The notes under the pieces are model-generated. The model did not search any database, was not told where the DNA came from, and saw only the letters and a list, made by a program, of their open reading frames with translations. A DNA stretch of 64,000 nt from a phage. A program made the translations under genes and the position numbers. Positions 37,586-55,805 of this stretch are shown here, in pieces. Position 1 is the stretch's first letter; the number at the start of each line of letters is the position of its first letter. The stretch lies in NCBI GenBank assembly GCA_024673055.1, contig GCA_024673055.1_4537.1; one strand, given 5' to 3'.

Positions 37586-37781
37586 TTCTACCTCCTTCGA
37601 TGCTTTGTGCCGTACCATCCCAAGCCATTAGAATATTTGCCAATAGTTCACGAGGCTCTTTAAACCAAACTTCCATTTCATCAAGAATCTCGTCCGTGTC
37701 GTAAGTATAACCTGGAACACCAAGTTCGCATTTCTTAAGATAGCTTTCTAACCAGCGGTGATAATTCTTAACCCCATTCAT
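37578..37781 (-). CDS. hypothetical protein
   Basis: 67-aa track ORF. Confidence 0.4.
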   Translation of the reverse strand: MNGVKNYHRWLESYLKKCELGVPGYTYDTDEILDEMEVWFKEPRELLANILMAWDGTAQSIEGGRNE

Positions 37782-38154
37782 ACTGTGCTACCTTTTCTTT
37801 TACCCAATCTACACGATCTTTATCATAATGTTGAGTGCCAAGGAAAAGACCATTGTGGAAACTTTCCTCACCGAAAGGATAAATCGGATCTAAACCATCT
37901 TCTTCAAATAACATTTTTAGTCTCTGTGATGTAGATTTCTTAGTTTCTGAGTTGTAGTTTGTGGTTATAAGCCAATCTTCCAAACAACGACACAAACCTT
38001 GACGAGAATCCCAAGGAAAAACACAATCTCCAACAGGAGCTTTTTCCGCCCATTCTAACCAACCTTTAAAAAAGTTATACAATATGTAGTCTTCAGTGTA
38101 ATACATTAGCGCCTCCTTTACATATACAATAACACCCCGCAGAACGGGGTGCAA
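37768..38154 (-). CDS. paralog family A (GLC...YPF...WVK family)
   Basis: Shares GLCRCL, IYPFG, RVDWVKEKV motifs with six other ORFs. Confidence 0.5.
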   Translation of the reverse strand: MHPVLRGVIVYVKEALMYYTEDYILYNFFKGWLEWAEKAPVGDCVFPWDSRQGLCRCLEDWLITTNYNSETKKSTSQRLKMLFEEDGLDPIYPFGEESFHNGLFLGTQHYDKDRVDWVKEKVAQYEWG

Positions 38155-38157
38155 CTG

Positions 38158-38769
38158 TTATTTAATCTGTTTAAAAATTTCGTTTGGAACGGTACCGTTT
38201 AAAATACCTTCTACGATCTCTTGTGCAGACGTGTAAGAGAGTCCAAAAGAAGCTACGCCTAAAATTGCCTCCTTTAAAGGATCTGGCAGGGGTTCAAAAT
38301 TACCTGCAACAAAGCCACCTGCACAAGCAGCACCTTCATCATCCCAGAAAACAACTGCTACGTCGTTACCATGCGAAGTTGTGCGATGTGCAATAACTTC
38401 AACTTCTGTTCCTTCTTTAGGAACAGAATAAGAACTGTCCCAAGAATATCTTTCCAAATCAGGAACAAAGATAACCTTTTCACCTACTGGCGGCAGTTCA
38501 CAACGATAATACCAAGAATTTTTTTCGTTCATTGTTTTATTTTCCTCCGCGTCTTCAAAAGTAACGATCCAATCGTAGCCGTAAGAAAACGGATATTTTA
38601 GATCTAAAGAATAAGTTTGACCTAGATCGTCCTCAACAAGAACCATCCTGTCAAAGTTTGCGATGTTAGGATTATGTTTAATGATAGGGTATGTTTCCCC
38701 TACAGTAAATTGCCCCAAATGGTAAAGTTCATCTCTCCAAGTAATTTGGATATGAGTGCATTGAATCAT
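38158..38769 (-). CDS. hypothetical protein
   Basis: 203-aa track ORF. Confidence 0.55.
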   Translation of the reverse strand: MIQCTHIQITWRDELYHLGQFTVGETYPIIKHNPNIANFDRMVLVEDDLGQTYSLDLKYPFSYGYDWIVTFEDAEENKTMNEKNSWYYRCELPPVGEKVIFVPDLERYSWDSSYSVPKEGTEVEVIAHRTTSHGNDVAVVFWDDEGAACAGGFVAGNFEPLPDPLKEAILGVASFGLSYTSAQEIVEGILNGTVPNEIFKQIK

Positions 38770-38773
38770 AAAA

Positions 38774-39046
38774 TCACCCCCAAGAAATATTTATATATCT
38801 TACAATGTTTGCACTGTCTAAAGCCATGTTTGCACCACACCCACGCTCGCGCCAGTAACTAACAATACCTTCACAGATACTCTCTTGTATCTTCTTATCA
38901 CTTGGCATTTCTAGTATAAGACTTGGGTTGTGGATGTTTATGTTATAATATCCTTCCTCTGCGGCTTGAGCTACCAATTTACTTACTTTTTCAAAGTACG
39001 GGGAATTAGTGGCATCTGCCATTGTTTTTAAGGTTTGTCTATCCAT
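38774..39046 (-). CDS. hypothetical protein
   Basis: 90-aa track ORF. Confidence 0.45.
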   Translation of the reverse strand: MDRQTLKTMADATNSPYFEKVSKLVAQAAEEGYYNINIHNPSLILEMPSDKKIQESICEGIVSYWRERGCGANMALDSANIVRYINISWG

Positions 39047-39444
39047 TATTCTGCCTCATCGTAGAAGAAATCCAACTCTTGTTCCAGTTGTTTAACTTGA
39101 TCCTTAACCCACTGTACACGTTTTTCATTAAACATGCAACGTTTTTCCTTACACTCTTGCTCAAAAGATTTTGCTGTGTTAAATGGGAAAGTTGTATCTA
39201 AACCAGCGTTTTCAAAACTGGCTAATTGCATACCATAAACAGAATATGCTAAAGAATGCTCTGCCCGAAATTCATCACTTATATACATACGCAGACCTCG
39301 GCATAAGCCAACATCAGCGTAACCACTTTCTCTTGGAAAGAGACGGAGGTGTTCTAACCAATTATTATAGAAATCTAAAAGAATCCTTTTACACTTCAAA
39401 TCGATTGTCATAAAAAGTTTCTCCTTCATCAAACAAGTTGGCAA
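39046..39444 (-). CDS. paralog family B (GLC...PF...WVK family)
   Basis: VGLCRGL, TFPFN, RVQWVKDQV motifs; start uncertain. Confidence 0.45.
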   Translation of the reverse strand: MPTCLMKEKLFMTIDLKCKRILLDFYNNWLEHLRLFPRESGYADVGLCRGLRMYISDEFRAEHSLAYSVYGMQLASFENAGLDTTFPFNTAKSFEQECKEKRCMFNEKRVQWVKDQVKQLEQELDFFYDEAE

Positions 39445-39811
39445 GATTGTTCACGGCAATCTGGGTGGAAAGAAGACAACTGTTTGCAGACACATAAGCA
39501 CGAGCTATTTTGTAAACATAGGCTTTCGTATTACAATTGTCTAGGATCGGAAGACTTTCGTCGATAGCATCTATAACACTAAACATCACATCTAAAACTT
39601 TAATGGTGAGTGTTGTATTTGTATCTTCGTAACCTTTTTCAATCAGACCTGAATAGAAAGTATAGTCCTCAACAGTTCGTCGTTTAAATTGGCGCATAAA
39701 ATCGGAACCATCTGTAGCAGAATTGAACAAATTTTCAAAAAATACGTCCCATCCGGCAAAAAGTGCTGACAGCATGATTAAGTGATCTACAGATTCATTT
39801 TCTTGTTTCAT
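39389..39811 (-). CDS. hypothetical protein
   Basis: 140-aa track ORF. Confidence 0.45.
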   Translation of the reverse strand: MKQENESVDHLIMLSALFAGWDVFFENLFNSATDGSDFMRQFKRRTVEDYTFYSGLIEKGYEDTNTTLTIKVLDVMFSVIDAIDESLPILDNCNTKAYVYKIARAYVSANSCLLSTQIAVNNLANLFDEGETFYDNRFEV

Positions 39812-39819
39812 ATCCTCTC

Positions 39820-40497
39820 CTATTTAATGTTCAGTCTGGCACACAAACGAGAAACAGTTTTAGCATCCCATTTACCACCACGTGCTGTTGCTATTTTCTT
39901 ACTATTGAATTTTTCAGCAATAGTTTTGTAAGGTGTATTTAAATCTCTAAGGATCTCCAAACGTTCACGGAATGTCTCTGCAAAAGCGTCTGCTTTAACA
40001 GAGTTGTATTCCATTTTTCCTTTTCTACGTGCAGCGGCAGTTTTAGGATTAGCACTGCCTAATAAAACACCTTTGCTTTTTGCTACAGCAAGACCCTTTT
40101 TAATACGATCAGCAATACCTCTAACTTCTTGTTCAGCCAGAACAGACAGAAGCTGTATAACCATTTTATCTGCGTCTGGCATGATGGCTATCTTAACATC
40201 GATCATTTCTAGAAGAGTTGCTACGGAGGCGTTGTTACGACCCAAGCGGTCAACTTTAGCTACCAATAAAGTTGCTCCGGTAGCTTTACACATTTCAACC
40301 GCTTTAACCAGTTCCTTACGTTGCTTCCAATCGCCCTTACCCGAATAGTATTCAGAAAATTGACCAATAACTTCCGCATCAGGCACAGAGTCTAAGAAGT
40401 AACGGATATCGTTCTCCTGGCTCTGCATACCATACTGGGCTTCACCTTTCTTCTGTTTAGACAAACGGCTGTAAACAACAAACTTTTTCATGATCAA
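39820..40497 (-). CDS. serine recombinase (resolvase/invertase family)
   Basis: VYSRLSKQ (catalytic Ser region), LLVAKVDRLGRN, LLSVLAEQEVRGIADRIKKGLAVAKSKG align with Hin/Gin/resolvase core; C-terminal HTH-like tail. Confidence 0.7.
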   Translation of the reverse strand: MIMKKFVVYSRLSKQKKGEAQYGMQSQENDIRYFLDSVPDAEVIGQFSEYYSGKGDWKQRKELVKAVEMCKATGATLLVAKVDRLGRNNASVATLLEMIDVKIAIMPDADKMVIQLLSVLAEQEVRGIADRIKKGLAVAKSKGVLLGSANPKTAAARRKGKMEYNSVKADAFAETFRERLEILRDLNTPYKTIAEKFNSKKIATARGGKWDAKTVSRLCARLNIK

Positions 40498-40501
40498 CTC
40501 C

Positions 40502-40729
40502 TCAATCGTTATCAGGATTCCATTTTACAAACTTGAAGCAGTTATTGTCAAGGAATTTATTGGCATCTTTTTCCTGTTTCCAAACGGTGCATTGTTCTTT
40601 AAGGGCTATCTGCTCATTCTGCACGTCTGATACCGCATTAGCAAAGAGGATCAGAAATCCCAAAAAGACCAACATCAATAACAGATTAAAGAAAGTTTGA
40701 AAACTCATGCATCCTCCCATTTGATCCAC
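40502..40729 (-). CDS. small membrane protein (paralog of 46911..47147)
   Basis: TM helix; WKQEKDANKFLDNNC matches LKHERNAEKFLDLEC in the paralog. Confidence 0.4.
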   Translation of the reverse strand: MDQMGGCMSFQTFFNLLLMLVFLGFLILFANAVSDVQNEQIALKEQCTVWKQEKDANKFLDNNCFKFVKWNPDND

Positions 40730-40956
40730 AGAATCATTTCTTCAACGTAAACCTCTTTACCTTTGTTATTGATGAAAGTGTATTCTATGAACTCCGCTGT
40801 ATACTTTTTGTTGTATTGCTCCGCTGCTGGGATCGGACACTTTGTCATACGTGTCTCAACCCATTGACGATGAATCGTTGCCTTGTTTTTGGGGTCAAAC
40901 GGGTGTAAATAGTGCGGTTCTCCCTCTTGACTATGCCCCATTTTATTCTTCTTCGC
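40705..40956 (-). CDS. hypothetical protein
   Basis: Track ORF trimmed to ATG with GGAGGAGG SD (40956). Confidence 0.4.
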   Translation of the reverse strand, partial: AKKNKMGHSQEGEPHYLHPFDPKNKATIHRQWVETRMTKCPIPAAEQYNKKYTAEFIEYTFINNKGKEVYVEEMILWIKWEDA

Positions 40957-41287
40957 CATGCTGCACCTCCTCCAGACGGTCATACACCCAAGCAAGACGA
41001 TCGAAGTTTTTGTGTTGGGTGCCGGACTTCTTCTCAATCCAATAACAAGGAATCCAACCTGACAGATCCCACTCGCCATCGAACGGATAGTTCCATTCTA
41101 AACCTTCCGCTTCAAACTGCTCTACCATTTCATCAGAGAGGGAAAGATACAAATCTTGGTCTTCCCCGCAATACACTTCCACTGCATGACACAAACCGCA
41201 AGCTTTGATGTTTTCGGGTGGATTTTGACTCATAGCTTGATCCAACCACCACTCATAGAATTCCAACAACATGATACTTGATTTCAT
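40943..41287 (-). CDS. paralog family C (GLC...YPF family)
   Basis: LLEFYEWWL, CGLCHAV, NYPFDG motifs. Confidence 0.5.
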   Translation of the reverse strand: MKSSIMLLEFYEWWLDQAMSQNPPENIKACGLCHAVEVYCGEDQDLYLSLSDEMVEQFEAEGLEWNYPFDGEWDLSGWIPCYWIEKKSGTQHKNFDRLAWVYDRLEEVQHGEEE

Positions 41288-41655
41288 TTGTCTTCCCCTT
41301 TCTCCATAAGCGGCGAAGCCGCGATCATCGACTTATAGACAACTTCGGCTGTTCGGGTTAGCCCCGTCCAGTCCTTCGCTGCCTCCAACATTTCTGAGGT
41401 AGGCTCTTTCGGGACCAAGACATACCCTTCTGGGATACACATTCCACTCTCTTTCTTTTCAGCTTCTTCCGACATAACTTGCCACACTCCGTAGCTGCAA
41501 TTCTCGAACAAACAATAGAGTTCAGATCCTTCATCATCCACGACAATGAAACAGTTCTCATCTGCTACTTTGGCGTTGTAAATCCGACCTATGGTCAAAT
41601 AGTCTCGGACATTAATAAACTTAGAGGCAAGAAACTTCACACGAATGTTTTTCAT
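41284..41655 (-). CDS. hypothetical protein
   Basis: 123-aa track ORF. Confidence 0.5.
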   Translation of the reverse strand: MKNIRVKFLASKFINVRDYLTIGRIYNAKVADENCFIVVDDEGSELYCLFENCSYGVWQVMSEEAEKKESGMCIPEGYVLVPKEPTSEMLEAAKDWTGLTRTAEVVYKSMIAASPLMEKGEDK

Positions 41656-41891
41656 TTCTTAAACTCCGAAAAGCAACCCAAAGAGATGACCCCGCCATTA
41701 TAGACGATAGCAAACTGGCACCCTGTTTTTGTGTCTGTGATGATGTAATCTAAAGCCCCAGTCATGCCAGTTTGAACAAAGCGATCCTTGGTTACAACTT
41801 TTGAGTCCGAGAAGCCGTTAACTTTCGGCACAGTGTCTGCCATAACAGCAGGAGTCACCAGAAACAATGCAATCAGTAATGCCTTTTTCAT
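41652..41891 (-). CDS. small secreted protein (signal peptide)
   Basis: MKKALLIALFLVTPAVMA signal-like N-terminus. Confidence 0.5.
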   Translation of the reverse strand: MKKALLIALFLVTPAVMADTVPKVNGFSDSKVVTKDRFVQTGMTGALDYIITDTKTGCQFAIVYNGGVISLGCFSEFKK

Positions 41892-41902
41892 AAATCCTCC
41901 AG

Positions 41903-42217
41903 TTAGCCTTGAAATGAATTGCGACGACCAATACGGGCACAGCGATCACCTTCATAAGAGGTGAAATCCAAACTCACTCGGAAGCCAGGGTGGGTATCAG
42001 AGATCCCCACATTCTTCACCCACATCTCGAAACTGCCGATATGTAAGGTCATAATGTTTACATACCATTCCAGCGTCACTTCTGTGCCGTCTACACCTGT
42101 GATGTAAAACTCACGAGCGAAATGGGTGTCGTGCTTCTCTTTCTGACGCTCATACTTAGCGATTGCACCTTTCTCAACAGCCGCTTTCAGGATCACTTCT
42201 AATTCTTCTATTTGCAT
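41903..42217 (-). CDS. hypothetical protein
   Basis: 104-aa track ORF. Confidence 0.5.
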   Translation of the reverse strand: MQIEELEVILKAAVEKGAIAKYERQKEKHDTHFAREFYITGVDGTEVTLEWYVNIMTLHIGSFEMWVKNVGISDTHPGFRVSLDFTSYEGDRCARIGRRNSFQG

Positions 42218-42272
42218 GTTCTCTCTCCTCTTGTTGTTGATGCAATCACTATAATATGTCTGACACTCTCTG

Positions 42273-42488
42273 TCAAATGTTTTCTGCTTCCAGTACTACT
42301 CTCTGGATCTGCACATCGTCAATGTTTGCAAGACAAGTCCCTAAGATAAGCCCTGCTCGGAAAGGGGCTTGGAATTTGGAGGAAGCCCCCACTCGAATAG
42401 AATACTCCACACCGCACATAACATAATCTACACGGTACATATTCAAGCCCATGAACATGAGTTCTTCTTCCGACTCTTCGATTTGCAT
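42273..42488 (-). CDS. hypothetical protein
   Basis: 71-aa track ORF (preferred over overlapping 42319..42510). Confidence 0.4.
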   Translation of the reverse strand: MQIEESEEELMFMGLNMYRVDYVMCGVEYSIRVGASSKFQAPFRAGLILGTCLANIDDVQIQRVVLEAENI

Positions 42489-42500
42489 TTTTATCTCCTC

Positions 42501-43055
42501 TTAGTTCCAACTAACGATGATGTGTTTGATAACCCCAAAAACGCTATATTCCGCTGTTGTCAACGTTACATCTAAACCTTTTGCACGCAACATTGTGGCT
42601 ACTACATTCACCCCTTCTTTCTGTTTATCCATCTCTTCGTAAGAAGAAGGGCTGTTACACAAACCAAAACTCGAAGGTTCAAAATATTTTTGGAATTTCC
42701 CCTGTTCTGCATAATCTTCAATCTCCGGCAGAATACAGTCTACCATTTCAGTAAAATGGGAATTTGCTTGCAGTGCTTTACTACGTAGTTTATCACGTAA
42801 ACTTCCCACAAACCCTTCCTGATCTTCTGTTTGCTCTTCTTCACAGAAAGGATGAAGTTCAGCCCAGTCCCAAACGTCTCCCTCTAAAGCAAACGTTGTG
42901 TTGTAGTTGAAGAAGGTGCAACGTGGAAGTTCCCCGTTGAAAGAGTCCTTCAGCAAAATGTATTTCTTACCATTTGCGTGGAAGAGTTCCCCTTTGATAA
43001 CCTTGCCTTTCTCGATATCGCTGTTGGTGGAACGGGTGCAGATAAACTGTTTCAT
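42501..43055 (-). CDS. hypothetical protein
   Basis: 184-aa track ORF. Confidence 0.55.
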   Translation of the reverse strand: MKQFICTRSTNSDIEKGKVIKGELFHANGKKYILLKDSFNGELPRCTFFNYNTTFALEGDVWDWAELHPFCEEEQTEDQEGFVGSLRDKLRSKALQANSHFTEMVDCILPEIEDYAEQGKFQKYFEPSSFGLCNSPSSYEEMDKQKEGVNVVATMLRAKGLDVTLTTAEYSVFGVIKHIIVSWN

Positions 43056-43109
43056 GATTTTCTCCTCTCTGTTTCGATGAGATGATTATGACAAAGACAG
43101 ATCCCTCTG

Positions 43110-43436
43110 TCAACCAATTATTTCTTCTGCTACACGTTCTTTTACCCAGTTCACGCGATCCACATTCAAATGACAACGGCTTCTTTCTGCTTCTAAGGTG
43201 TACTTTCCAAAATTACTGTTGAAAGGCAGCACCATAACCAAACCTTTGTGGTAGAACTGCTCATGCATTTCATCCAGTACAGGTTCGTATCGTTCGCTTT
43301 CTCCCATATCGTAAAAATCATAGAGGTTCGTGCACAAACCTGTGCAACGGGTGAACGGTTCGCCTTCAGGAGCACCAGCTTCCAACCATGCCAAATACGT
43401 GCGGTAAAATGTTAATAGTTCTTCGCTCATTTCCAC
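43110..43436 (-). CDS. paralog family D
   Basis: LTFYRTYLAWLEAGAP, TGLCTNL, VLPFN, RVNWVKERV. Confidence 0.5.
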   Translation of the reverse strand: MEMSEELLTFYRTYLAWLEAGAPEGEPFTRCTGLCTNLYDFYDMGESERYEPVLDEMHEQFYHKGLVMVLPFNSNFGKYTLEAERSRCHLNVDRVNWVKERVAEEIIG

Positions 43437-43639
43437 TCTCCTTCATGATAGTAAACCTCAAAAGAATAGTAAGTGAACATGCTCATTGTAACACCTGCCA
43501 TTTCTGGATCAAAGGGAGTGTTGTTATACATGTCAACCACTGCCTGACCCGCTGCTTTGGCATGTGCTGCCGAATCACAGGCACAAACATCTTTCTCCCA
43601 CGGAAACTTGCCATCGTACTTAAGACGGACAATCCACAT
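43427..43639 (-). CDS. hypothetical protein
   Basis: 70-aa track ORF. Confidence 0.45.
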   Translation of the reverse strand: MWIVRLKYDGKFPWEKDVCACDSAAHAKAAGQAVVDMYNNTPFDPEMAGVTMSMFTYYSFEVYYHEGEWK

Positions 43640-43641
43640 GC

Positions 43642-43869
43642 TTATTCCTCCATCTCAAACCATTCAGGGAACACTTTACGGAAGACACGGGTTGTTTCCA
43701 AAAGGAATTCCAATTCTTTTTCCAGATCTGCGTTCCAATCGTGCACTTTAACATTGATTGCCAATGCACTTGCACGGCGACTTAATTCTTGACAGATTGG
43801 ATCACGCAGAACTATTGAGTCGTAAAACTGACAAACGGCCTCAAGTTCATACCAGTTATAATCCGACAT
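43642..43869 (-). CDS. hypothetical protein
   Basis: 75-aa track ORF. Confidence 0.45.
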   Translation of the reverse strand: MSDYNWYELEAVCQFYDSIVLRDPICQELSRRASALAINVKVHDWNADLEKELEFLLETTRVFRKVFPEWFEMEE

Positions 43870-44195
43870 TATTCATCCTCCTCTGCAATACGATCTCTTA
43901 CCCAATTAATCCTGTCCACGTTCAGGTGACATACCTCTGCATCTGATTCTAAGACATATGCATCGTAGTTCTCATTGAAAGGGAGTTCTTGACTCAACCC
44001 TTTGTAGTAAAACTGTGAGTGCATTTCGTCTGACAAGGTTGTTATAAGGAGATTGTAGCCATCTGCGTGCACATAATCGAACAAGTTGGCACACAAACCG
44101 CAATCTCGCCGAAAAGGTTTACCATCAGGAGCACCAACATCAATCCATGCTAGATAAATTTTATAAAACTCCATCAACCCTGCGCTTGTTTTCAT
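43869..44195 (-). CDS. paralog family E
   Basis: MEFYKIYLAWIDVGAP, CGLCANL, LPFN, RINWVRDRI. Confidence 0.5.
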   Translation of the reverse strand: MKTSAGLMEFYKIYLAWIDVGAPDGKPFRRDCGLCANLFDYVHADGYNLLITTLSDEMHSQFYYKGLSQELPFNENYDAYVLESDAEVCHLNVDRINWVRDRIAEEDE

Positions 44196-44433
44196 TTAGC
44201 CACCTCGTTAGTTTTTCTTGCTCTTTGTTTGCGCGTTCTAAGCTTCTAAACTTTAAACAAAGGGAACGAGAATCCCTACCCATGCACAAGCTTTCATCTA
44301 AGCTGTGCTCCCCAACCAACCAAAGAGAATATGTTTGAACATCTAACCCATAGTTTCTGTCTTTCCATAATCTCACCCCAAGAACATCAAAAGGCGCTTC
44401 CGCGACTAAAGAAAGAAACCGATCTTTATTCAT
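44161..44433 (-). CDS. hypothetical protein
   Basis: 90-aa track ORF. Confidence 0.4.
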   Translation of the reverse strand: MNKDRFLSLVAEAPFDVLGVRLWKDRNYGLDVQTYSLWLVGEHSLDESLCMGRDSRSLCLKFRSLERANKEQEKLTRWLNENKRRVDGVL

Positions 44434-44495
44434 ATTACACCACCTTTCTCACGTTGATAATGTATGTATACCATACATAAAATAAATGTCAAGGC

Positions 44496-44696
44496 TTATC
44501 GACACAGATAGTTGTAACGATCTGCTTTATCCTCTGCTTCAGCAAAGTCAGCAATCAAGGAAGTTTTGAGTTCTTCCAACTCTTTCACCCAAGAGTCGTA
44601 ATCGTTCTGTGTTTCTCCAATAGTTTGGAGAAAACAATCGTCGTAGCCAATAGACATGGCTAACTCGATAATACGTTCCAGTTTTTCTTCCATCAC
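44496..44696 (-). CDS. hypothetical protein
   Basis: 66-aa track ORF. Confidence 0.4.
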   Translation of the reverse strand: MMEEKLERIIELAMSIGYDDCFLQTIGETQNDYDSWVKELEELKTSLIADFAEAEDKADRYNYLCR

Positions 44697-45055
44697 TTCT
44701 CTCCTTCTACAGACTTCTGTTTAACATAGAAGTAAGCACCACGAGCAAGATACAAATCATGTTCAATATCGCTCACAGGAAAACCATCTGGATTTTTAAA
44801 ACCATCTTCTACAGCCAAAATGAGAGATCGTAAACTGATAGCTAACAACTCCATTTGATCTTGTAGTTTTCTATTTTCTGCGTAAAGGTTTTTGCATTTT
44901 TGTTCTGCATTTTTCCATTGTTCTAATGCATGATCATAGCGGTGCATAAGAATAGCTTTTTCTTGTTCACGCTTAAAAGTTTCTTCACAAATGAAATCCG
45001 TGCCTAAACCAGTTTCTTCATCTTTGACAAATACTTCAACAAAATCTTTAGACAT
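44693..45055 (-). CDS. hypothetical protein
   Basis: Track ORF trimmed to ATG 45055 with AGGAGA SD. Confidence 0.45.
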   Translation of the reverse strand: MSKDFVEVFVKDEETGLGTDFICEETFKREQEKAILMHRYDHALEQWKNAEQKCKNLYAENRKLQDQMELLAISLRSLILAVEDGFKNPDGFPVSDIEHDLYLARGAYFYVKQKSVEGEK

Positions 45056-45056
45056 A

Positions 45057-45320
45057 TTATCTCCTATTTGCTTTTGGATACTCCCAACCCTCTGGGAGAT
45101 CTTCTTTACACATCCACTCAAAAGGCCAGCGACAATAACTGTGCCACTTCCCATCGAGATACAAGCAATCTTCATCTACTGGTCCACAAGGGTTGATAAC
45201 TACAACACACCCTTTCGCTCGCCAATATTGAACTATTTCAGGGTAAAAACAAGAAACGTCGGTCCACTCCCAAATACGCTCATCATTCAAACGATATGCT
45301 GCTGGCAATGTTTCTTCCAT
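45057..45320 (-). CDS. hypothetical protein
   Basis: 87-aa track ORF. Confidence 0.45.
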   Translation of the reverse strand: MEETLPAAYRLNDERIWEWTDVSCFYPEIVQYWRAKGCVVVINPCGPVDEDCLYLDGKWHSYCRWPFEWMCKEDLPEGWEYPKANRR

Positions 45321-45324
45321 ATTA

Positions 45325-45771
45325 TTAAACCTCTGTCAAAGAGAACCGCCAATCCTTACTACTACCTACACCAAGGAAGATATAGTCTCCGGTACTAACG
45401 GAATATCTCCAAGCGGGAATCCAATCAGGAATCTCTGGCTTATGGCTGTAGCCATAACGCTCGCCACTCGAATCTGTTGCAATATAATTAACAAATTCAG
45501 GAACCTCTAAAATTTCACCTTGATACTCTACACGCTTGAAGCCATCTTCCACTTCTTTCTCACCTTCTACCAGACAAGCAAGAAGTTTGATGTGAGGGCA
45601 AGTGAAATCTTGTCCTGGATAACGTGAACGGATATCAGTTAACAATGCGATCACAGCATCCGATAACTCTTTATAATCCTCATATCTTACAAATGTGCCT
45701 TCTGTCGGATCATCAGGACATAAACGCCAAACATCGTTGCAGTTTACAGCATAATGTCGCATTTTAGTCAT
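45325..45771 (-). CDS. hypothetical protein
   Basis: 148-aa track ORF. Confidence 0.5.
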   Translation of the reverse strand: MTKMRHYAVNCNDVWRLCPDDPTEGTFVRYEDYKELSDAVIALLTDIRSRYPGQDFTCPHIKLLACLVEGEKEVEDGFKRVEYQGEILEVPEFVNYIATDSSGERYGYSHKPEIPDWIPAWRYSVSTGDYIFLGVGSSKDWRFSLTEV

Positions 45772-45781
45772 AAATACCCCC

Positions 45782-46180
45782 TTATCGTTGCGTACAATCA
45801 GCTTCTAGAGTAAGAACATTCGTTATTGTTTTATCATTTTTTAGAAATGCAAACCAAGCCAAAGTGTCTCGATACTCTGTGCGCATCATTACTACTTCAG
45901 TAGTGCCAATAAACTGTTGTGAACCGTACATAGCACTACCATCTTTACTTTTTTCTCCTGTGTATTGCAGAATGCCACTCATCAAAGCACCACCTGAATT
46001 TTTAAGGATAAAGGAGTTATCTTTATTAATGACAACAGAAGCCATTTTCTTAGGACCAGAAATCACTTCACCTTTCAGATTTTTAACAACCACATCTGAC
46101 ACACACTCATAAACTTGAGACGCATTTGCTGTTCCAAGTGATGCAATGAGTAACAATAAACCTACAATGATCTTTTTCAT
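45782..46180 (-). CDS. secreted protein (signal peptide)
   Basis: MKKIIVGLLLLIASLGTANA signal peptide. Confidence 0.5.
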   Translation of the reverse strand: MKKIIVGLLLLIASLGTANASQVYECVSDVVVKNLKGEVISGPKKMASVVINKDNSFILKNSGGALMSGILQYTGEKSKDGSAMYGSQQFIGTTEVVMMRTEYRDTLAWFAFLKNDKTITNVLTLEADCTQR

Positions 46181-46275
46181 ATAAACTCTCCTCTTTATTT
46201 ACCCGACGCGCCCCTGTTGGGCGGAAAGGGTTGTACGCAAAATTTTTAGCTCCAATCGTCGGGTGTCCCGACTCC

Positions 46276-46482
46276 TTACGCTTTTAATGTTTTAACAGAA
46301 TGACAAGCTTTGCAAACCATAACCGGAACAAGTTCATCTCCATTATCCGCATAAATCACTGTTTTCTTCATTCTGCCACCACATGAACAATACTCCGTAT
46401 GATCCACTGGAATATTAAATATTCCGTAATCACTTTCATACTGTTTCTTACATATGGACACTGCTTTTGTAAAACAAGACAT
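46276..46482 (-). CDS. small zinc-ribbon protein
   Basis: CKKQ...CSCGG...CKAC. Confidence 0.45.
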   Translation of the reverse strand: MSCFTKAVSICKKQYESDYGIFNIPVDHTEYCSCGGRMKKTVIYADNGDELVPVMVCKACHSVKTLKA

Positions 46483-46484
46483 AC

Positions 46485-46706
46485 CTACTCCGAAAGAACA
46501 TTCACTTCATCAGAGAAAAATACGTAATCACAACCTTCCCAAACATCTTCTTCAAACCACTCCCATCCCTCAACTTTGGACATTTCTTCTATCGTAACAA
46601 AGAATGTTGTCATATCATCGCTAACAAGATGTGCTTCAACAACAAAAGGAATCTGAACATTCTCAAAACCAACATAACCCAATACATCGCAAACTCTAAT
46701 TTTCAT
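46485..46706 (-). CDS. DYVFF-family small protein (paralog of 49962..50192)
   Basis: Shares W-rich acidic C-terminus ...EGCDYVFFSDE with ...EGEDYVFFPHE. Confidence 0.45.
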   Translation of the reverse strand: MKIRVCDVLGYVGFENVQIPFVVEAHLVSDDMTTFFVTIEEMSKVEGWEWFEEDVWEGCDYVFFSDEVNVLSE

Positions 46707-46707
46707 A

Positions 46708-46908
46708 TTATGCTCCTTTGTAGATTATGTTGGTGCGTTCACACTCTGCCACCAGCAAGCGATTAGCGATGTTGTCCATAGGAACATCAATCTCTACGCT
46801 CCAGGCATTGATATACACTTCTTCAATCTTTGCTCCAAGCGTTTGTGCGATCAGGGCAACAGCCCCAGCATATTCAAGTTTAATCTCTATTACCATTTTG
46901 CACCTCAA
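46708..46908 (-). CDS. hypothetical protein
   Basis: 66-aa track ORF. Confidence 0.4.
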   Translation of the reverse strand: MRCKMVIEIKLEYAGAVALIAQTLGAKIEEVYINAWSVEIDVPMDNIANRLLVAECERTNIIYKGA

Positions 46909-46910
46909 GG

Positions 46911-47147
46911 TTATTTATCTTGCTTGTATCTTACAAGGCGATCACACTCTAGGTCAAGAAATTTCTCCGCATTTCGTTCATGTTTGAGCACAATACATTG
47001 TTCTTTCCAGTCTGTAGCTCTTTGCTGCGCTGCTCCTGGGTCAAAATCCCAAAGCCATGCCGCGAAAAGAACAACCATAACAATTATCAAGAAACTAAAC
47101 ACTATTGGCATTGCACATCCTCCTGTGTAGCATGATCTTTTACCCAT
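46911..47147 (-). CDS. small membrane protein (paralog of 40502..40729)
   Basis: TM helix plus conserved KEQC...AEKFLDLEC segment. Confidence 0.4.
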   Translation of the reverse strand: MGKRSCYTGGCAMPIVFSFLIIVMVVLFAAWLWDFDPGAAQQRATDWKEQCIVLKHERNAEKFLDLECDRLVRYKQDK

Positions 47148-47416
47148 TTTATACGGGCAGCATTCAAATGTAATAGCCCGTTTCTTTGTGCAAAATCATA
47201 TTTAAACCAGTCTCCGTCATCAAACGGGTATTCTTCAGACAACCCTGCTTCTCGAAATTGCATTTGCATTTCATAATTTAGATCATCGTAACCACCAGTC
47301 CAAAGGTAGAGGCAACTACATAATCCTTTATCGTGCCAGAAAGGATTATTATCTGGAGCACCAGCTAATAGCCAGTTATGATATGCCTGATAAAATTCTT
47401 TAAGTTCTTCTGACAT
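47102..47416 (-). CDS. paralog family F
   Basis: LKEFYQAYHNWLLAGAP, KGLCSCL, EYPFD, RIKWVKDH. Confidence 0.5.
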   Translation of the reverse strand: MSEELKEFYQAYHNWLLAGAPDNNPFWHDKGLCSCLYLWTGGYDDLNYEMQMQFREAGLSEEYPFDDGDWFKYDFAQRNGLLHLNAARIKWVKDHATQEDVQCQ

Positions 47417-47614
47417 TTAACCTCCTGTATACAGTGTTGAAAGATACACAGCAAAAGCATTCTCGGCTGTTTTCACCTCCTCTTCAAGATCTTCACGCTC
47501 TGCTGGCGTTAATGCATTCCGCACAGCAGCGTCTGCTTCTCGGATTTTTCTTACTAAACGTGAAACATCTTTCAATTGTTGAAAAGTAGCCATAATCTTT
47601 CTCCTTTTAGTCAA
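47417..47614 (-). CDS. hypothetical protein
   Basis: 65-aa track ORF. Confidence 0.4.
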   Translation of the reverse strand: MTKRRKIMATFQQLKDVSRLVRKIREADAAVRNALTPAEREDLEEEVKTAENAFAVYLSTLYTGG

Positions 47615-47858
47615 ACCAGTTGTATTCAGAAGGGTAACGAGCGTAGTTTGGCTTGTACCCCAGCCTTTTCATCTTGACAGACATACGAGTGAAGCCAAAG
47701 GTTGTTTTGCCCTTAGACATAAACTTCTTCCCACTCTTCATTGGCTTCTTAGGGTCTTTGATCGTCTGGTGTAACGCTCGCGCAAGCCATAAAGTGTATG
47801 CGCTCGGCACTTGATTAACTTTCATCTTGTTACCTTTCATCATTTCACCTCGGACCAA
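47607..47858 (-). CDS. hypothetical basic protein
   Basis: 83-aa track ORF; lysine-rich. Confidence 0.4.
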   Translation of the reverse strand: MVRGEMMKGNKMKVNQVPSAYTLWLARALHQTIKDPKKPMKSGKKFMSKGKTTFGFTRMSVKMKRLGYKPNYARYPSEYNWFD

Positions 47859-48139
47859 TCAATAGTGATCCACTCGTATGCCCCGTTCAGATCCATTTCT
47901 TTATAAACAATAAGCCCACGCTCACGAAGAATTGCTACTGCTTCATCCATCCATTTCACCTGATTGTAGATTTCCCCTGGGTGAGTAGGAGAATTATCCA
48001 AACCAAAATCGGATGGCGTGAAATTCCTTGAAGAGTTTCCCGCTCGTGCTTCAGCAAAACAAGTCTCGATCACTTCTTCAACAGGGAAGTTGAAGGAAGC
48101 TTCTTTTGCAATACGGCGTAACTGTTCGGTCAGATTCAT
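47840..48139 (-). CDS. hypothetical protein
   Basis: 99-aa track ORF. Confidence 0.45.
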   Translation of the reverse strand: MNLTEQLRRIAKEASFNFPVEEVIETCFAEARAGNSSRNFTPSDFGLDNSPTHPGEIYNQVKWMDEAVAILRERGLIVYKEMDLNGAYEWITIDWSEVK

Positions 48140-48166
48140 CTTATTCTCCTTTCGTTGTGCGAAACA

Positions 48167-48604
48167 TTATAACAGATCTAATGCTTTCAACTCTTCTTTC
48201 AATGATTCAGGCAGGTCACATTCAATGTCAATCAGAGATAACAAGTGACCAACAATGCCTTCCAGATGTTGATACTCACTATAACTTATAAATTCAGAAT
48301 TGTAAACAGAAACATCCTTAGTTTCTTTCACAACTTCCCCCGCAGACACGCACATAAAAAAGTTACGCTCTCCGCGAGCTAACAATATCTCCCAACTTCT
48401 GAACGGATACTGTCCAGCTTCAATAATATCCCCGCTGTCCAATAAAGTCAATGAGCAAACAGACCCTGATTCACTAACATCTTCGACGCGGAAACAAGAC
48501 CCTTCAATCAAAGCTGCCATTTTGAAATTTTCATCCGAGATCACAGAGAAAGCTTCACAGGCAGCTTTACTTTTGAAACAGTAAACAGCATTAACTTTAA
48601 ACAT
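48167..48604 (-). CDS. hypothetical protein
   Basis: 145-aa track ORF. Confidence 0.5.
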   Translation of the reverse strand: MFKVNAVYCFKSKAACEAFSVISDENFKMAALIEGSCFRVEDVSESGSVCSLTLLDSGDIIEAGQYPFRSWEILLARGERNFFMCVSAGEVVKETKDVSVYNSEFISYSEYQHLEGIVGHLLSLIDIECDLPESLKEELKALDLL

Positions 48605-48616
48605 AACATTCCCCTT

Positions 48617-49153
48617 TTAAACAAAAGATACTCCGATGGTAGCAACAACCAAACGTTTATAAACTTCAACCTCTTCTGTAGGATTAGCCATTTTATGCTC
48701 TGCTGCTTCTTTCAAAGCTTCTTCATAACTTTCAAATCCAGAAATACAGGTGTCATCAGTCATTACAACATACCACTCTTCTTTTGTTGTATCAACAGGT
48801 TCTTCTTGGGGTTTTCCACGACCACCACGAATACCACCGTCAACAAAATAATCTATATGAGCAGAATTGATTATGTAACGATCCCCATCACTAGCAGTGA
48901 TAATACCGTCTCTCCCTATCACAACAATTGACAAGATATTACCATTTGCATCAGTGCTCAACACCTCGAAAAAATTCTCTCCGATGATAGCCGCAATACT
49001 GTTATCAAAGGTAGAATATAGTCGCATATAATCCTCATCCTGGAAACGGTAGACATGACCTTCTTTAAACATTGTATGCTCCTTCTTGTTCAAGAGTGAA
49101 AGGAATGATTTCACCATAGCTGTATCGCATAGCATCAACTTCTGCTTCTGCAC
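48617..49153 (-). CDS. hypothetical protein
   Basis: 178-aa track ORF. Confidence 0.5.
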   Translation of the reverse strand: MQKQKLMLCDTAMVKSFLSLLNKKEHTMFKEGHVYRFQDEDYMRLYSTFDNSIAAIIGENFFEVLSTDANGNILSIVVIGRDGIITASDGDRYIINSAHIDYFVDGGIRGGRGKPQEEPVDTTKEEWYVVMTDDTCISGFESYEEALKEAAEHKMANPTEEVEVYKRLVVATIGVSFV

Positions 49154-49259
49154 GTTGTGCTAGTTCTAATGTTGCACAGATCTTGTAAGGGACAGTGCTG
49201 CATTGGCTCCAGCCTGGGGTATTCTTTGTTACTAAATATACAGTAGTTCCTTTATTCAT
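49065..49259 (-). CDS. hypothetical protein
   Basis: 64-aa track ORF; overlaps upstream gene by 89 nt, uncertain. Confidence 0.3.
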   Translation of the reverse strand: MNKGTTVYLVTKNTPGWSQCSTVPYKICATLELAQRAEAEVDAMRYSYGEIIPFTLEQEGAYNV

Positions 49260-49713
49260 AACTTTCTCCTCCTAGTTCATCATACCATTTCAAAGCGTCT
49301 TTTGGAAGCATACCAAAATCTTCTTTCAGTTCTTTTTCAATCTCTTCTTGCATTTCCATCAGCGTTTTCAGTTGACGGACTTTTTTGTGCATAGCCACAT
49401 TCCTTTCATTAAGGTTTGTCACTACATTATTTGCACGACTCGGTGGGAATGACAAAGGTTTCACGGGAAGATAATCTTCAATATTATCTAATGCATTACG
49501 AAAATTATGATCCAAGAAACGCACATCTACACGATTGTAATCGGCAGCTACAACAGTGAACACTTTAAACGGCACATTGGATAAAGTATGTTGCACACAG
49601 ACAGTACCCATATTGCCTTCAATTTTACTATTAACTTCCAGCAAACCTGTATGAGCACTAACATAATCGTGAACACATTGCACATAAGCTGCCAGTATAG
49701 TGAATTGTCTCAT
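49252..49713 (-). CDS. hypothetical protein
   Basis: 153-aa track ORF. Confidence 0.5.
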   Translation of the reverse strand: MRQFTILAAYVQCVHDYVSAHTGLLEVNSKIEGNMGTVCVQHTLSNVPFKVFTVVAADYNRVDVRFLDHNFRNALDNIEDYLPVKPLSFPPSRANNVVTNLNERNVAMHKKVRQLKTLMEMQEEIEKELKEDFGMLPKDALKWYDELGGESYE

Positions 49714-49958
49714 TTTCTACCTCCCCATAATGCTAACATTTTATTGAAAATGGAAACGCGTCGTGCGCGAGATGCCATATCATAATTCATTCTTTCCGTC
49801 TCTGCAAGAAATTGATCTACTGTAATCAACGCTTCCGTCTTCTCTTTCAGAGTTTGCACATTCATCCATTCACATTCAGAGTACCAGTTATCGAAATACA
49901 AACTATCAAGAAGATCCATTGCTGCTTCATTCTGTTGTGGTGTGATCATTGCACACAA
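49710..49958 (-). CDS. hypothetical protein
   Basis: 82-aa track ORF. Confidence 0.45.
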   Translation of the reverse strand: MCAMITPQQNEAAMDLLDSLYFDNWYSECEWMNVQTLKEKTEALITVDQFLAETERMNYDMASRARRVSIFNKMLALWGGRK

Positions 49959-49961
49959 CCT

Positions 49962-50192
49962 TTAATAGACAATTTCATATTCGTGAGGAAAGAAAACATA
50001 ATCTTCCCCTTCTCGTGCATCTATCTCGTCCCAAAACCATTCCTGCACTTCCATCATCTTCGAGAATCGCACATGAGCAAGCCCACTGTATTCCACTGTA
50101 GCTTCCAACACAAGTGGAAATTTTGCATGTGCCAATCCTTTATAACCACCATCATTCTCAATACGAATTTTCATGCGTTTCATGTTATGCAT
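49962..50192 (-). CDS. DYVFF-family small protein
   Basis: Paralog of 46485..46706. Confidence 0.45.
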   Translation of the reverse strand: MHNMKRMKIRIENDGGYKGLAHAKFPLVLEATVEYSGLAHVRFSKMMEVQEWFWDEIDAREGEDYVFFPHEYEIVY

Positions 50193-50394
50193 CCTTCAGA
50201 CCCTTAATGAAGTAACGACTAACCGGATTCCCTCGGAAGTATTCGTTAATGAAATCGATAACACACGTTTCACTGCCTGTCACAACGGACGGCTTACAGT
50301 TTTGGAATTCTACAGCTACACGGCTGGCTTTAGCCAGTGCTTGCACACGTGTAGGATCAGTCAAGAACATTGTGACAGTTTTCAAATTCTTCAT
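50185..50394 (-). CDS. hypothetical protein
   Basis: 69-aa track ORF. Confidence 0.4.
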   Translation of the reverse strand: MKNLKTVTMFLTDPTRVQALAKASRVAVEFQNCKPSVVTGSETCVIDFINEYFRGNPVSRYFIKGLKDA

Positions 50395-50443
50395 TTCATC
50401 TCCTCATTGGCTATCTGTTATGTCATCCATTATACAAACATCT

Positions 50444-50818
50444 TTATTCAATGCAAGCATTATTTGCATCTTCAATTCTGTCTTTCACCCACTGAAGACG
50501 TAACGTGTTGGTATGACACGCCAAGTTTATACACTCTGAAAGGTAATCCATGCAATCTGCATTGAACGGAAGATTGTAGTCCAACCCTGCACATGTAAAT
50601 TGTTTCCTCATTTCATATTTCAAACGGTCCAACAAACTATCCCGCCATCTTCTATCTTCTTCTCTAGTTGTCTCACCAACAAAATCATCTACATAATCTA
50701 CCAGACAACCGCATAAGCCACTCGTTGTGCGATTCATTGCAGGATAGTTGGCAATCCATGCTTTATAGAAGCGAAGTAATGTTGCACTACTCAACGGAAC
50801 ATTTTTACTCTCTTGCAT
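50444..50818 (-). CDS. paralog family G (first gene of the minus-strand block)
   Basis: LLRFYKAWI, SGLCGCL, NLPFN, RLQWVKDRI. Confidence 0.5.
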   Translation of the reverse strand: MQESKNVPLSSATLLRFYKAWIANYPAMNRTTSGLCGCLVDYVDDFVGETTREEDRRWRDSLLDRLKYEMRKQFTCAGLDYNLPFNADCMDYLSECINLACHTNTLRLQWVKDRIEDANNACIE

Positions 50819-51157
50819 GATAATCTCCTCTCATCGTTAGCCATCTTTCATGGCAATCATCAATCACCAACATCATACGATCAATCTTAAGGAATTACAA
50901 TCGAATTATCATAGGGGATTCCTATCAATTATCCTATATATACCGATTATTTTTGACACCCCACTCTTGTATAAAAAGTAACCCAAAATATCTACGGGGA
51001 GAGATTATTTCGACACACCCTGTTTCATGGCAATCATGGCAAGAATATCTAATAGAATCAATATGATATGGCAAAAATCATGGCGCATACGTAAGAAGTG
51101 CTTAACGCGAATTTTCGGGCCGTCAGGTCCACGCAGCGACAATTCCCAAATATCATG

Positions 51158-51181
51158 CGAATGAGAATAATTATCATTCGT
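51158..51181. repeat. palindromic operator-like box (Fur-box-like)
   Basis: GCGAATGAGAATAATTATCATTCG near-perfect inverted repeat. Confidence 0.45.
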
Positions 51182-51336
51182 ATTCAATGACTTATGCAAG
51201 GCTCATGCCAACATAGCGACAAGGTGGGCCACTTGATTATAAATCACACAAACACTTATTTATCAATGGTTTGGCAACTTCATCATATGACGGAACAATG
51301 TCAACTAATCCCGCCCATGACAGACGGACTATTATT

Positions 51337-51358
51337 TATATGAGAATGATTATTATTT
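51337..51358. repeat. palindromic operator-like box
   Basis: ATATGAGAATGATTATTATTTA, same core as 63829 repeats. Confidence 0.4.
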
Positions 51359-52247
51359 AAACGTTTATTAACATAAAAACCAGAATAAATCAAGAATTTT
51401 CTGATTTTATTTACGTTTAAGAGAACGTGCTCAACATCCTACCGGATCGCCGTTGGCAATCCTCGGGTATTTACGCCCCCATAATTATTGCCATGCTAAT
51501 TATTTCCTTATGTAATTACCACAATGATTATTGTTATTGCGCTAATGTTATGATCTTGGTAATTACATATAATGCTAATAATAAGCCAGCGCAATAAGTG
51601 TAAGCGTCATTACGCTTGCAATTATTGCAAGCTACGCAGTAACAAGAAATAACCATCACCGATGGTTATGATTGTTGGGGTGTAGTTGGCTTATTATTAG
51701 CTCGCTATGTGTCCGGCATAGCGTGCTAATGATAATCCTGGGAATGATTCGTTTTGTAATGATTTCATTCAGTCACTATTATGGCAATAGTTATTATTTT
51801 AATGGTTTCGTTTGTTATTGTTCGTTAGTTGGTTGTTTTGTCGTGTTATCGTTATCTTGCTTAGTATTCATCATGGTTTGATTGTTTGTCGTTATCAATC
51901 ATCTTGCTATTATTCCTTTGATTATGATTAGTTTGCTTATTGTTTTAGGTTGTTGGTTAGTTAGTTGTTGCGAACTATTATCAACATTATAGTTATGCAC
52001 TTATATTGCATAGATAAACATGGATAGATGATAATGGTTATCATTGCACTAGAAAGGAGGTAAAAGGGTGTTTTTGATGGTTTGTTGTTGGTTGTTGATC
52101 GATTTTAACCGCTATAAATGGCTCTCTAACAGCCTGTTACCCTGGGAGGTATGGTTATTCGTTTAATGGTTGATTAGCTCGATACCGCGATTTATTCAAT
52201 TTTGTTCTGTGTCGGTTTTTCATAGGCGAAAGCTATCAACATTGTTC

Positions 52248-52277
52248 GGGCAAAAAGAAAGGGCGCTTGGTGCGCCC
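52248..52277 (-). terminator. intrinsic terminator ending the small-gene array
   Basis: GGGCGC-ACCAA-GCGCCC hairpin (read on - strand) followed by TTTCTTTTT; same hairpin recurs at 52826 and 58301. Confidence 0.55.
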
Positions 52278-52293
52278 CTTGTTTTGTTGTCGC

Positions 52294-52713
52294 TTATAAC
52301 GCTTCATAGATTGAGTAGATCCGGTTTGCAAGGTCATTACGAAAGCGGAATTTTTCATCACGTTTGATCATCAGATCCTTAAAACCGCATTCTTTCAGTG
52401 CTTCATTAACTTTATGGCGGCAAACGTTCATATTATCCTGCGCGTCACCAATAAACTTATTACTGTGATGCATTGCTTTGATCTCTTCCTCCAATACCAG
52501 GGCAACTACACGGATCGGATCAAGCTGATATGCGGTAACATCCATGCGGCATTGTAAACGGCTTTTAACATCGTTTACCGGATACACTGCAACCTCTTCC
52601 CCGTCAACGTTCACGATAACCAATTTACCATCGATTTCGAAGCCTTTGGCGGCGCTACCGTGACAAAAAGCGTTATCGAAGGAGTAAGCTGGATTATTTG
52701 ATTTAATGTTCAT
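52294..52713 (-). CDS. hypothetical protein
   Basis: 139-aa track ORF. Confidence 0.5.
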   Translation of the reverse strand: MNIKSNNPAYSFDNAFCHGSAAKGFEIDGKLVIVNVDGEEVAVYPVNDVKSRLQCRMDVTAYQLDPIRVVALVLEEEIKAMHHSNKFIGDAQDNMNVCRHKVNEALKECGFKDLMIKRDEKFRFRNDLANRIYSIYEAL

Positions 52714-52825
52714 GGTGTTGTCCTTTGTTTCGTTTCGTTGTTTGCTGCCAGTGAGTTAAATATAATATAACGCCGATCCCCTGTCAATAGGGGATAGCGC
52801 ATTATTTACATTTCTTTACGTTAAA

Positions 52826-52842
52826 GGGCGCTTGGTGCGCCC
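52826..52842 (-). terminator. stem-loop (copy of GGGCGCTTGGTGCGCCC)
   Basis: Identical 17-bp hairpin downstream of 52853..53221. Confidence 0.4.
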
Positions 52843-52852
52843 TTGTATAATC

Positions 52853-53221: not shown

Positions 53222-53299
53222 CTTCTTTTCCTCTTTGTGGGCTTGCTGTATTGCTCGCCCTACGCAATAACTATAAGTTAACAGGAGAAATAAAGCAAG

Positions 53300-53533: not shown

Positions 53534-53551
53534 GATATAACTCCTAAATCA

Positions 53552-53920: not shown

Positions 53921-53922
53921 GG

Positions 53923-55804: not shown

Positions 55805-55805
55805 C

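Follow-up and report, generated by a model that had tools for sequence, protein, structure and literature searches.

Why should a phage keep seven versions of one small gene, dispersed through a single block of its genome and differing widely from one another in sequence? The question is raised by a 64,000-nucleotide (nt) stretch of phage DNA (NCBI GenBank assembly GCA_024673055.1, contig GCA_024673055.1_4537.1), which we call the window. The family to which these genes belong is not new as a sequence cluster, yet it is large, uncharacterized, located among early genes, and predicted to adopt a fold absent from the PDB. The reading that we favor, and to which we give an even chance of being correct, is that each protein is a cytoplasmic domain, made early, that interacts with the host and combines a conserved pocket with a variable loop, and that the window carries a panel of old variants. 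An original prediction, made from the sequence alone, had instead seen a host-takeover or anti-defense gene repeatedly duplicated and diversified under arms-race selection. Judged by its sequence, the window comes from a Phapecoctavirus (phAPEC8-like) myovirus of E. coli: a 14-kb region is 95-97% identical to Phapecoctavirus (phAPEC8-like, Stephanstirmvirinae) E. coli myoviruses, ESCO13 being the top match, and the seven copies are 95-100% identical to phage proteins already deposited. The genes are listed below with the length of the protein in amino acids (aa), the profile score, the E value obtained when that member was left out of the profile, and the ratio of nonsynonymous to synonymous substitution rates (dN/dS).

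37768..38106, minus strand: member A, 112 aa; profile 93.8 bits; leave-one-out E 3e-16; dN/dS 0.13
39046..39411, minus strand: member B, 121 aa; profile 118 bits; leave-one-out E 5e-18; dN/dS 0.07
40943..41287, minus strand: member C, 114 aa; profile 102 bits; leave-one-out E 2e-21; dN/dS 0.19
43110..43430, minus strand: member D, 106 aa; profile 114 bits; leave-one-out E 4e-32; dN/dS 0.18
43869..44195, minus strand: member E, 108 aa; the copy used for structure prediction; leave-one-out E 1e-32; dN/dS 0.38
47102..47416, minus strand: member F, 104 aa; profile 102 bits; leave-one-out E 2e-23; dN/dS 0.02
50444..50818, minus strand: member G, 124 aa; profile 157 bits; leave-one-out E 4e-21; dN/dS 0.25

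All seven open reading frames (ORFs) are present on the minus strand with the stop-proximal coordinates first assigned to them, and the paralogous family that the original prediction described, small proteins with a conserved scaffold and variable stretches, emerges in agreement from blastp, profile, and leave-one-out comparisons. Each of the 21 pairwise blastp comparisons is significant (21/21, at 23-52% identity). A profile built from the seven sequences and run against 678 six-frame ORFs of the window finds exactly seven matches, with E values of 1e-36 to 1e-46, and the next-best ORF stands at E = 0.36. When each member in turn is omitted from the profile it is still recovered, at 55-108 bits (E 3e-16 to 1e-32); among 1000 shuffles no score exceeds 16.5 bits, and the best non-family ORF reaches at most 8.7 bits. 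Statistical support for the shared motifs had been set as a check. Most of those motifs (L..FY...W, GLC..L, EM..QF..GL, PF(N/D), and R..WV) correspond to real columns of the alignment, but the AGAP...PF element is confined to D, E, and F. Members A and B form the most divergent subfamily.

The sizes first given, 104-132 aa, need correction to 104-124 aa. Three starts had been called too far upstream, and we have moved those of A, B, and D downstream because of Shine-Dalgarno sites and ortholog annotation: member A begins at the ATG at 38106, preceded by AAAGGAGG (its ESCO13 ortholog is annotated at 339 nt), and members B and D begin at ATGs at 39411 and 43430, each preceded by GAAGGAG. The start of F follows CAGGAGG and that of G follows GAGAGGAG, and good Shine-Dalgarno sites lie upstream of all seven. 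The proteins are acidic, with isoelectric points (pI) of 4.19-5.30 and 18-25 Asp plus Glu versus 7-18 Lys plus Arg per protein; neither a signal peptide nor a membrane segment is evident by eye, no predictor having been used, in the seven window sequences.

The original prediction could assign the family to nothing known, which is half right, because the family has been catalogued and yet remains uncharacterized. It matches no functionally named family, but phrog_2510, a group that PHROG places in the category 'unknown function', gives full-length matches to all seven members (best E 1.8e-31); phrog_6418, phrog_27059, and phrog_2176 are listed along with it, and the orthologs in phages tuntematon and nieznany carry the pVOG tag VOG7392. 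These entries are cluster identifiers only. They come without a function, structure, Pfam entry, or describing paper, and give no account of invariant residues, early-region position, or multicopy arrays. Literature searches on the family turned up one trace, a single line of a BLAST table in the 2013 genome paper of phage JG068, in which gp5 is said to resemble phAPEC8_0044 at 32% identity (PMC3765740).

The family is widespread. When 1.84 billion cluster representatives were searched exhaustively with a profile, 1,878 clusters (50% identity) were retrieved at E<=1e-3 and 917 at E<=1e-10, and the named members are all phage proteins labelled 'hypothetical' or lie on a phage-sized contig of ~150 kb; they include proteins of Burkholderia phages BcepSaruman and BcepSauron, of Klebsiella and Escherichia Drexlerviridae, and of many coliphages. 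With tblastn against 50,697 phage records we located 628 places in 246 records, all with proteobacterial hosts, distributed over Stephanstirmvirinae, rV5-like, and phi92-like myoviruses, T1-like siphoviruses, N4-like and T7/phiKMV-like podoviruses, and others. The carriers are mostly strictly lytic, and their hosts span the alpha-, beta-, and gamma-proteobacteria.

Searches for a named relative returned nothing. In Pfam-A no family came near threshold, the noise matches (E 0.016-0.17) arising from single members only; a scan of the seven members against NCBIfam gave no match, and none of the seven matched PADLOC-DB at E<=1. The PDB sequence search yielded nothing below E 0.17 with the 7-sequence profile or E 1 with a 38-sequence profile. 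The ten longest family proteins, searched for domain fusions, contain no Pfam domain, nor do any of the 28 hits from a further wide search, in which a 109-sequence profile was used. No plasmid homologs were matched, and the idea that the genes belong to a plasmid leading region was dropped for that reason. A scan of 185,579 representative genomes with a single protein, which detects close relatives only, found no bacterial chromosomal or prophage homologs. From these searches the family appears to be restricted to phages. Similarity to a known structural-protein domain, which the original prediction had set as a second check, was not found, nor do the genes lie in a structural module.

Where the gene lies is more informative. 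The early role first proposed for it is well supported by its position in several unrelated phage architectures, and in phages with a known temporal map it is located in the early unit. At its left end, the genome of the T7-like Burkholderia phage JG068 holds the class I early genes (PMC3765740); there, gp5 lies between annotated host promoters and the early terminator, before the primase and helicase. Every hit in N4-like phages is within ~6.5 kb of a genome end, with the gene between the terminal repeat or homologs of N4 gp1/gp2 and the genes for RNA polymerase II (RNAPII). That segment, from gp1/gp2 to RNAPII, is the N4 early region. A temperate lambdoid-like contig has, in order, CI repressor, strong terminator, promoter-like site, family member, and KilA-N; the promoter-like site is also operator-like, with three GTTCACA repeats, and the family member is the first gene after it. 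By its sequence context this copy would head an early-left operon. T1-like phage Sadiya and other contigs have a member among small ORFs of no assigned function near replication genes.

In the window, guanine-plus-cytosine (GC) skew and ORF layout define a single long minus-strand block running from ~51 kb down to ~33.4 kb, and a bidirectional terminator with a perfect hairpin (33311-33334) closes it. Member G is the first gene past a 1.5-kb non-coding block head. Matches to sigma-70-like promoters number 71 in the window versus 52.4 +/- 6.7 expected, the minus strand has four that agree at 11/12 positions, and two matches lie upstream of G, at 51033-51004 and 50900-50872.

A place beside replication and transcription genes (the Sadiya helicase, a D5_N primase, the RNAPII of N4-like phages) would also suit regulators or chaperones of the phage's own program, serving as cofactors in transcription, replication, or assembly, and the purifying selection described below would fit them too. 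We consider this very unlikely. The carriers follow unrelated transcription strategies (a T7-like single-subunit RNA polymerase, the N4 virion RNA polymerase, myoviruses dependent on the host polymerase, a temperate lambdoid phage), and no common phage partner is evident; the copy number ranges from 1 to 10, with single copies dispensable among close relatives, and the acidic pI argues against DNA binding.

Because one member adjoins a temperate-phage immunity region, superinfection exclusion or competition between phages has also to be weighed, and the small membrane proteins beside members C and F, together with N-terminal membrane segments in a few family members, could be read in the same way. 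The carriers are nonetheless mostly strictly lytic, and the seven window proteins have no membrane segment that the eye can find. The temperate copy lies past the cI terminator and behind the operator-like promoter, and hence would not be expressed in the lysogen; a rex-like reading of it was rejected on the same grounds, since those two elements separate cI from the gene. Of the explanations discussed here, exclusion seems to us scarcely probable.

The predicted structure gives the family its clearest definition. AlphaFold2, supplied with a 38-sequence alignment, models member E with high confidence (predicted local distance difference test [pLDDT] 94.7, predicted template modeling score [pTM] 0.87) as a domain with five main helices, at residues 5-19, 34-42, 50-64, 77-85, and 93-107. 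A Foldseek search of BFVD recovered the same predicted fold in 17 viral proteins, all of them small and uncharacterized, and among solved PDB structures the fold has no counterpart. The domain is rich in aromatic residues. Conservation was computed over 230 domains from diverse clusters and is given here in member E numbering:

C35 (229/230), P72, and F73: 100%
R95: 99%
G33: 97%
F62: 96%
F10 and L34: 95%
W17 and N92: 94%
L7 and W98: 93%
Y11: 92%
E57 and Q61: 82%
H90: 72%

Helical periodicity would place C35, E57, Q61, R95, and residue 102 at or next to the inward sides of helices 2, 3, and 5. The most variable element of the family is loop L2, with an entropy of 3.94 bits in addition to variation in length (member G has a long insertion there); within orthogroups, 41% of L2 sites vary, versus 8-21% elsewhere. 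Natural tandem fusions also occur: 24 of 208 profile-matching proteins (search representatives plus cluster members) have two or three domains, and the C, PF, and R residues are kept in both domains of the tandem fusions. A 199-aa fusion was modeled with pLDDT 94.6 and pTM 0.75 and without a low-confidence linker. Because of these fusions and the absence of a weak linker from the model, the single-domain members are possibly dimers.

This pattern of conservation invites a sharper version of the reading that we favor, in which the protein is a small enzyme or a binder (sponge) of small molecules. The Cys at the N-terminus of helix 2 would form, with Arg95, Asn92, His90, Glu57, and Gln61, a catalytic or ligand pocket for a universal metabolite or immune signal, with the paralogs distinguished by their ligand or their regulation. 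It is rare for an invariant Cys to be retained for packing alone, and here C35 is joined by an almost equally constant R95; the conserved polar residues, by helical periodicity, face inward or lie at the edge in helices 2, 3, and 5; the domain is aromatic rich; the site persists in both halves of tandem fusions and in phages of very different hosts. Against this, the family resembles neither Tad1, Tad2, and Acb2 nor any PDB enzyme in fold or sequence, and the pocket is derived from periodicity and conservation. H90 is conserved in only 72% of domains, and neither a canonical metal site nor a catalytic triad is present. A metal site (C35/x37/C89/H90) was considered as a family feature and set aside: three or more Cys or His residues occupy positions 35, 37, 89, and 90 in only 47% of domains, and for that reason such a site is not a defining feature. 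We regard the enzyme or sponge as possible though doubtful.

How the seven came to be in one genome is best approached through copy number, which differs among close relatives. The copies in the syntenic block are as follows:

nieznany: 3
tuntematon: at least 4, the locus reaching the record end
EF1-1: 5
Schickermooser: 6
phAPEC8_ev052: 6
window: 7
ESCO13: 7, a set that differs from that of the window
PsgM04F: 10

Podoviruses and siphoviruses have a single copy each. Among these seven relatives, member C has orthologs in ESCO13 and PsgM04F only, and member D is present in tuntematon, PsgM04F, and EF1-1 only; the member E proteins of PsgM04F and the window are ~81% identical. Members C and D both lie in a segment (40001-44000) with a GC fraction of 0.43, versus 0.38-0.40 in the flanking DNA, and the genes at 40502-42217 have orthologs in ESCO13 and PsgM04F alone of the seven relatives. 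The rise in GC and the confinement of these orthologs together suggest that 40001-44000 is a mosaic, horizontally exchanged segment carrying C and D.

Relationships were taken from an identity matrix and average-linkage clustering. The paralogs are 22-41% identical in that matrix, apart from D and E at 50%, and for each of them between 5 and 50 non-orthologous outsiders are nearer than the best in-genome paralog. A protein of T1-like phage Sadiya, for example, is 40-45% identical to members D-G, closer than A or B is to any other member. Because non-orthologs from other phages are nearer than paralogs in the same genome, these comparisons indicate that the seven are not monophyletic and are either old or assembled by exchange between phages, with no recent burst. 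The repeated duplication in this lineage that had been proposed is therefore not borne out; D and E are the sole pair that looks like a local, recent duplication. Duplication has touched the surrounding genes as well. The block contains three more paralog pairs, each at a distance of one to three genes from a family member, from which it follows that the block grew by duplication of multigene segments. The products of 40502-40729 and 46911-47147 (34% identity, E 7e-10) are small single-pass membrane proteins encoded just downstream of C and F; 46485-46706 pairs with 49962-50192 (37%, E 2e-11), and the C-terminal half of 42501-43055 pairs with 47840-48139 (28%, E 2e-8). To judge by eye, this last group may have a third member in 38774-39046.

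Selection was assessed gene-wide by the method of Nei and Gojobori (NG86), comparing the window with the seven relatives. The ortholog dN/dS of the seven members is 0.02-0.38 (median 0.18), member E being the highest, and that of 44 neighboring genes has a median of 0.15 (interquartile range 0.11-0.23). Selection on all the paralogs is purifying and unremarkable relative to their neighbors.

These results bear directly on the explanation first offered, that of a panel of anti-defense inhibitors produced by recent repeated duplication and diversifying under positive, arms-race selection. Much about the locus would fit such a panel: the genes lie in an early accessory region, their number varies from 3 to 10 among relatives, a conserved scaffold is combined with a hypervariable loop L2, D and E at 50% identity are a local duplicate pair, and segments containing neighboring genes have been duplicated too. 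Arms-race selection, however, is not supported by the gene-wide dN/dS values, which for the orthologs of every paralog equal those of the neighbors, and recency is disfavored by the low identity of the paralogs outside D/E, their non-monophyly, and the closer outsiders that each possesses. A shared site accounts better than a free-running interface for the near-total conservation (~100%) of C35, PF, and R95 in phages whose hosts are alpha-, beta-, and gamma-proteobacteria, and no solved structure of an anti-defense protein matches. We think this explanation improbable.

The family can also be compared with known systems. T7 Ocr/gp0.3, lambda Ral, and P22 Abc are small early proteins of host takeover or anti-defense, and the family resembles such T7-, N4-, and lambda-type early proteins in being ~100 aa long, acidic, helical, and promoter proximal in early operons, where it occupies the same genomic positions. 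The Ocr/ArdA fold was not found for the family. Its pI of 4.19-5.30, set beside the very high negative charge of the Ocr/ArdA DNA mimics (pI ~4 or lower), is acidic but not extreme. To the sponges Tad1, Tad2, and Acb2 the likeness is one of concept: these too are small, early, and probably oligomeric, with conserved pocket residues and several copies in some phages, but no structural or sequence match links them to the family. Imm/SUKH immunity arrays of polymorphic-toxin loci share with it several divergent, small, helical paralogs, tandem copies, and fusions; here, by contrast, there is neither a Pfam Imm/SUKH match nor an adjacent toxin gene, and the context is that of phage early genes and not of a bacterial toxin locus. 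A function in host takeover or anti-defense is a plausible conjecture.

On the reading that we favor, an early host-interaction domain kept as a panel of old variants, the window would encode seven cytoplasmic, acidic proteins of ~105-125 aa, each a single compact five-helix domain and presumably made at the very start of infection. Their target would be a component of the host, not the virion and not the phage's own machinery for replication. Helices 1, 2, and 5 and the P72-F73 loop make up the conserved half of the domain, with C35 and R95 invariant and N92, E57, Q61, and H90 nearly so; we suspect that a single shared pocket or contact site is built from these residues to serve a common chemistry or binding function. 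Loop L2, hypervariable in sequence and in length, could act together with L1 and helix 4 to direct the individual paralogs to different partners or ligands. The tandem fusions suggest that the working unit may be a dimer or pseudo-dimer. The seven copies would represent an old panel, in part assembled horizontally, that purifying selection maintains and that gain and loss of segments reshuffle among relatives. Of all this, the analysis shows the homology, the predicted fold, the pattern of conservation, the location in early regions, the purifying selection, and the flux in copy number; early expression in this phage, a host target, the pocket, dimerization, and any part in counter-defense or host takeover are inferences.

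Several observations weigh against this reading. Early expression in this phage is argued from promoter-like matches and from analogy with other phages. The pocket is argued from periodicity and conservation, and the conserved polar residues could instead be a purely structural, buried network with helix caps. The pTM of 0.75 for the fusion is only moderate evidence of fixed domain packing. Gene-wide positive selection is absent, and a counter-defense role would predict a stronger signal; nor are 7-10 copies with an invariant site obviously needed against a single host-protein target. Finally, no named homolog, domain fusion, or conserved neighbor ties the family to a function, and no neighbor is conserved across JG068, Axy11, Sadiya, and the contigs L013 and L017-L020.

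The most far-reaching possibility, one that we rate as unlikely, is that we have here a new fold class of effector, serving phages in counter-defense or host takeover: a dimeric five-helix domain of which large myoviruses hold 3-10 specificity variants and small phages one copy. In such an effector the invariant Cys/Arg pocket would bind or chemically modify a conserved host or immune molecule; podoviruses and siphoviruses would keep one copy at the head of an early operon, and the myovirus arrays would be old variants.

The family is a well-defined candidate, not the discovery of a mechanism. It is abundant (~1,900 clusters at 50% identity), occurs in at least five phage architectures with alpha-, beta-, and gamma-proteobacterial hosts, and occupies the promoter-proximal early positions in which takeover and counter-defense genes usually lie, all without a Pfam entry, a solved structure, or a publication devoted to it. 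A confident model and a few invariant residues offer clear targets for mutation (C35, R95, and P72-F73). A function found for one member would annotate thousands of 'hypothetical' early genes, and it might explain why large coliphages of therapy collections keep several copies.

The remaining observations concern the surroundings of the family and the records with which it was compared. Several records 95-97% identical to the window phage carry Campylobacter, Acinetobacter, or Pseudomonas phage labels (vB_AbaM_ABPW7, for example), and the host labels on these near-identical non-Escherichia records look doubtful. The other genes of the minus-strand block all fall in the PHROG category 'unknown function', with the exception of a serine recombinase that separates members B and C in the middle of the block (39820-40497, minus strand; Pfam Resolvase, phrog_125 DNA invertase); another Resolvase gene is found close to a family member in L017, an unrelated contig of 62.6 kb. 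A 124-aa ORF (40705-41079, minus strand) overlaps the 3' end of member C by 137 nt. The non-overlapping part, 40705-40942, which was the sole part queried, has no ortholog in the seven relatives, and the ORF is probably not a gene as called. The distance from member C to the membrane-protein gene downstream is ~214 nt in the window; in ESCO13 the two genes abut.

Two adjacent minus-strand genes, 48167-48604 and 48617-49153, both match phrog_3710 (E 9.4e-07 and 3.8e-33), and their counterparts in phAPEC8_ev052 are named 'goF mRNA metabolism modulator of RB69' and 'RNA metabolism moderator of RB51'; judged by these matches, the tandem pair may encode early proteins like T4 goF/comC-alpha. At the far end of the block, a plus-strand ORF (32175-32990) converges on it, with the terminator hairpin in between. 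By position only, this ORF is the counterpart of a SIR2-like NAD-dependent deacetylase gene annotated in relatives.

The head of the block, 50819-52293, comprises 1.5 kb without convincing ORFs. It contains matches to sigma-70-like promoters, several inverted repeats that are imperfect, and short direct repeats, among them 20-mers at 50841 and 51018 and 21-28-mers at spacings of 441 and 364 nt. Because the deposited records of several relatives begin around there, it may be close to a physical genome end or terminal repeat. Beyond it, from 52294 to 64000 on the minus strand, the organization changes: small ORFs of 94-188 aa are each separated by 100-700 nt of non-coding DNA, in contrast to the tightly packed block below, and this pattern of individually spaced small genes is shared by the relatives.

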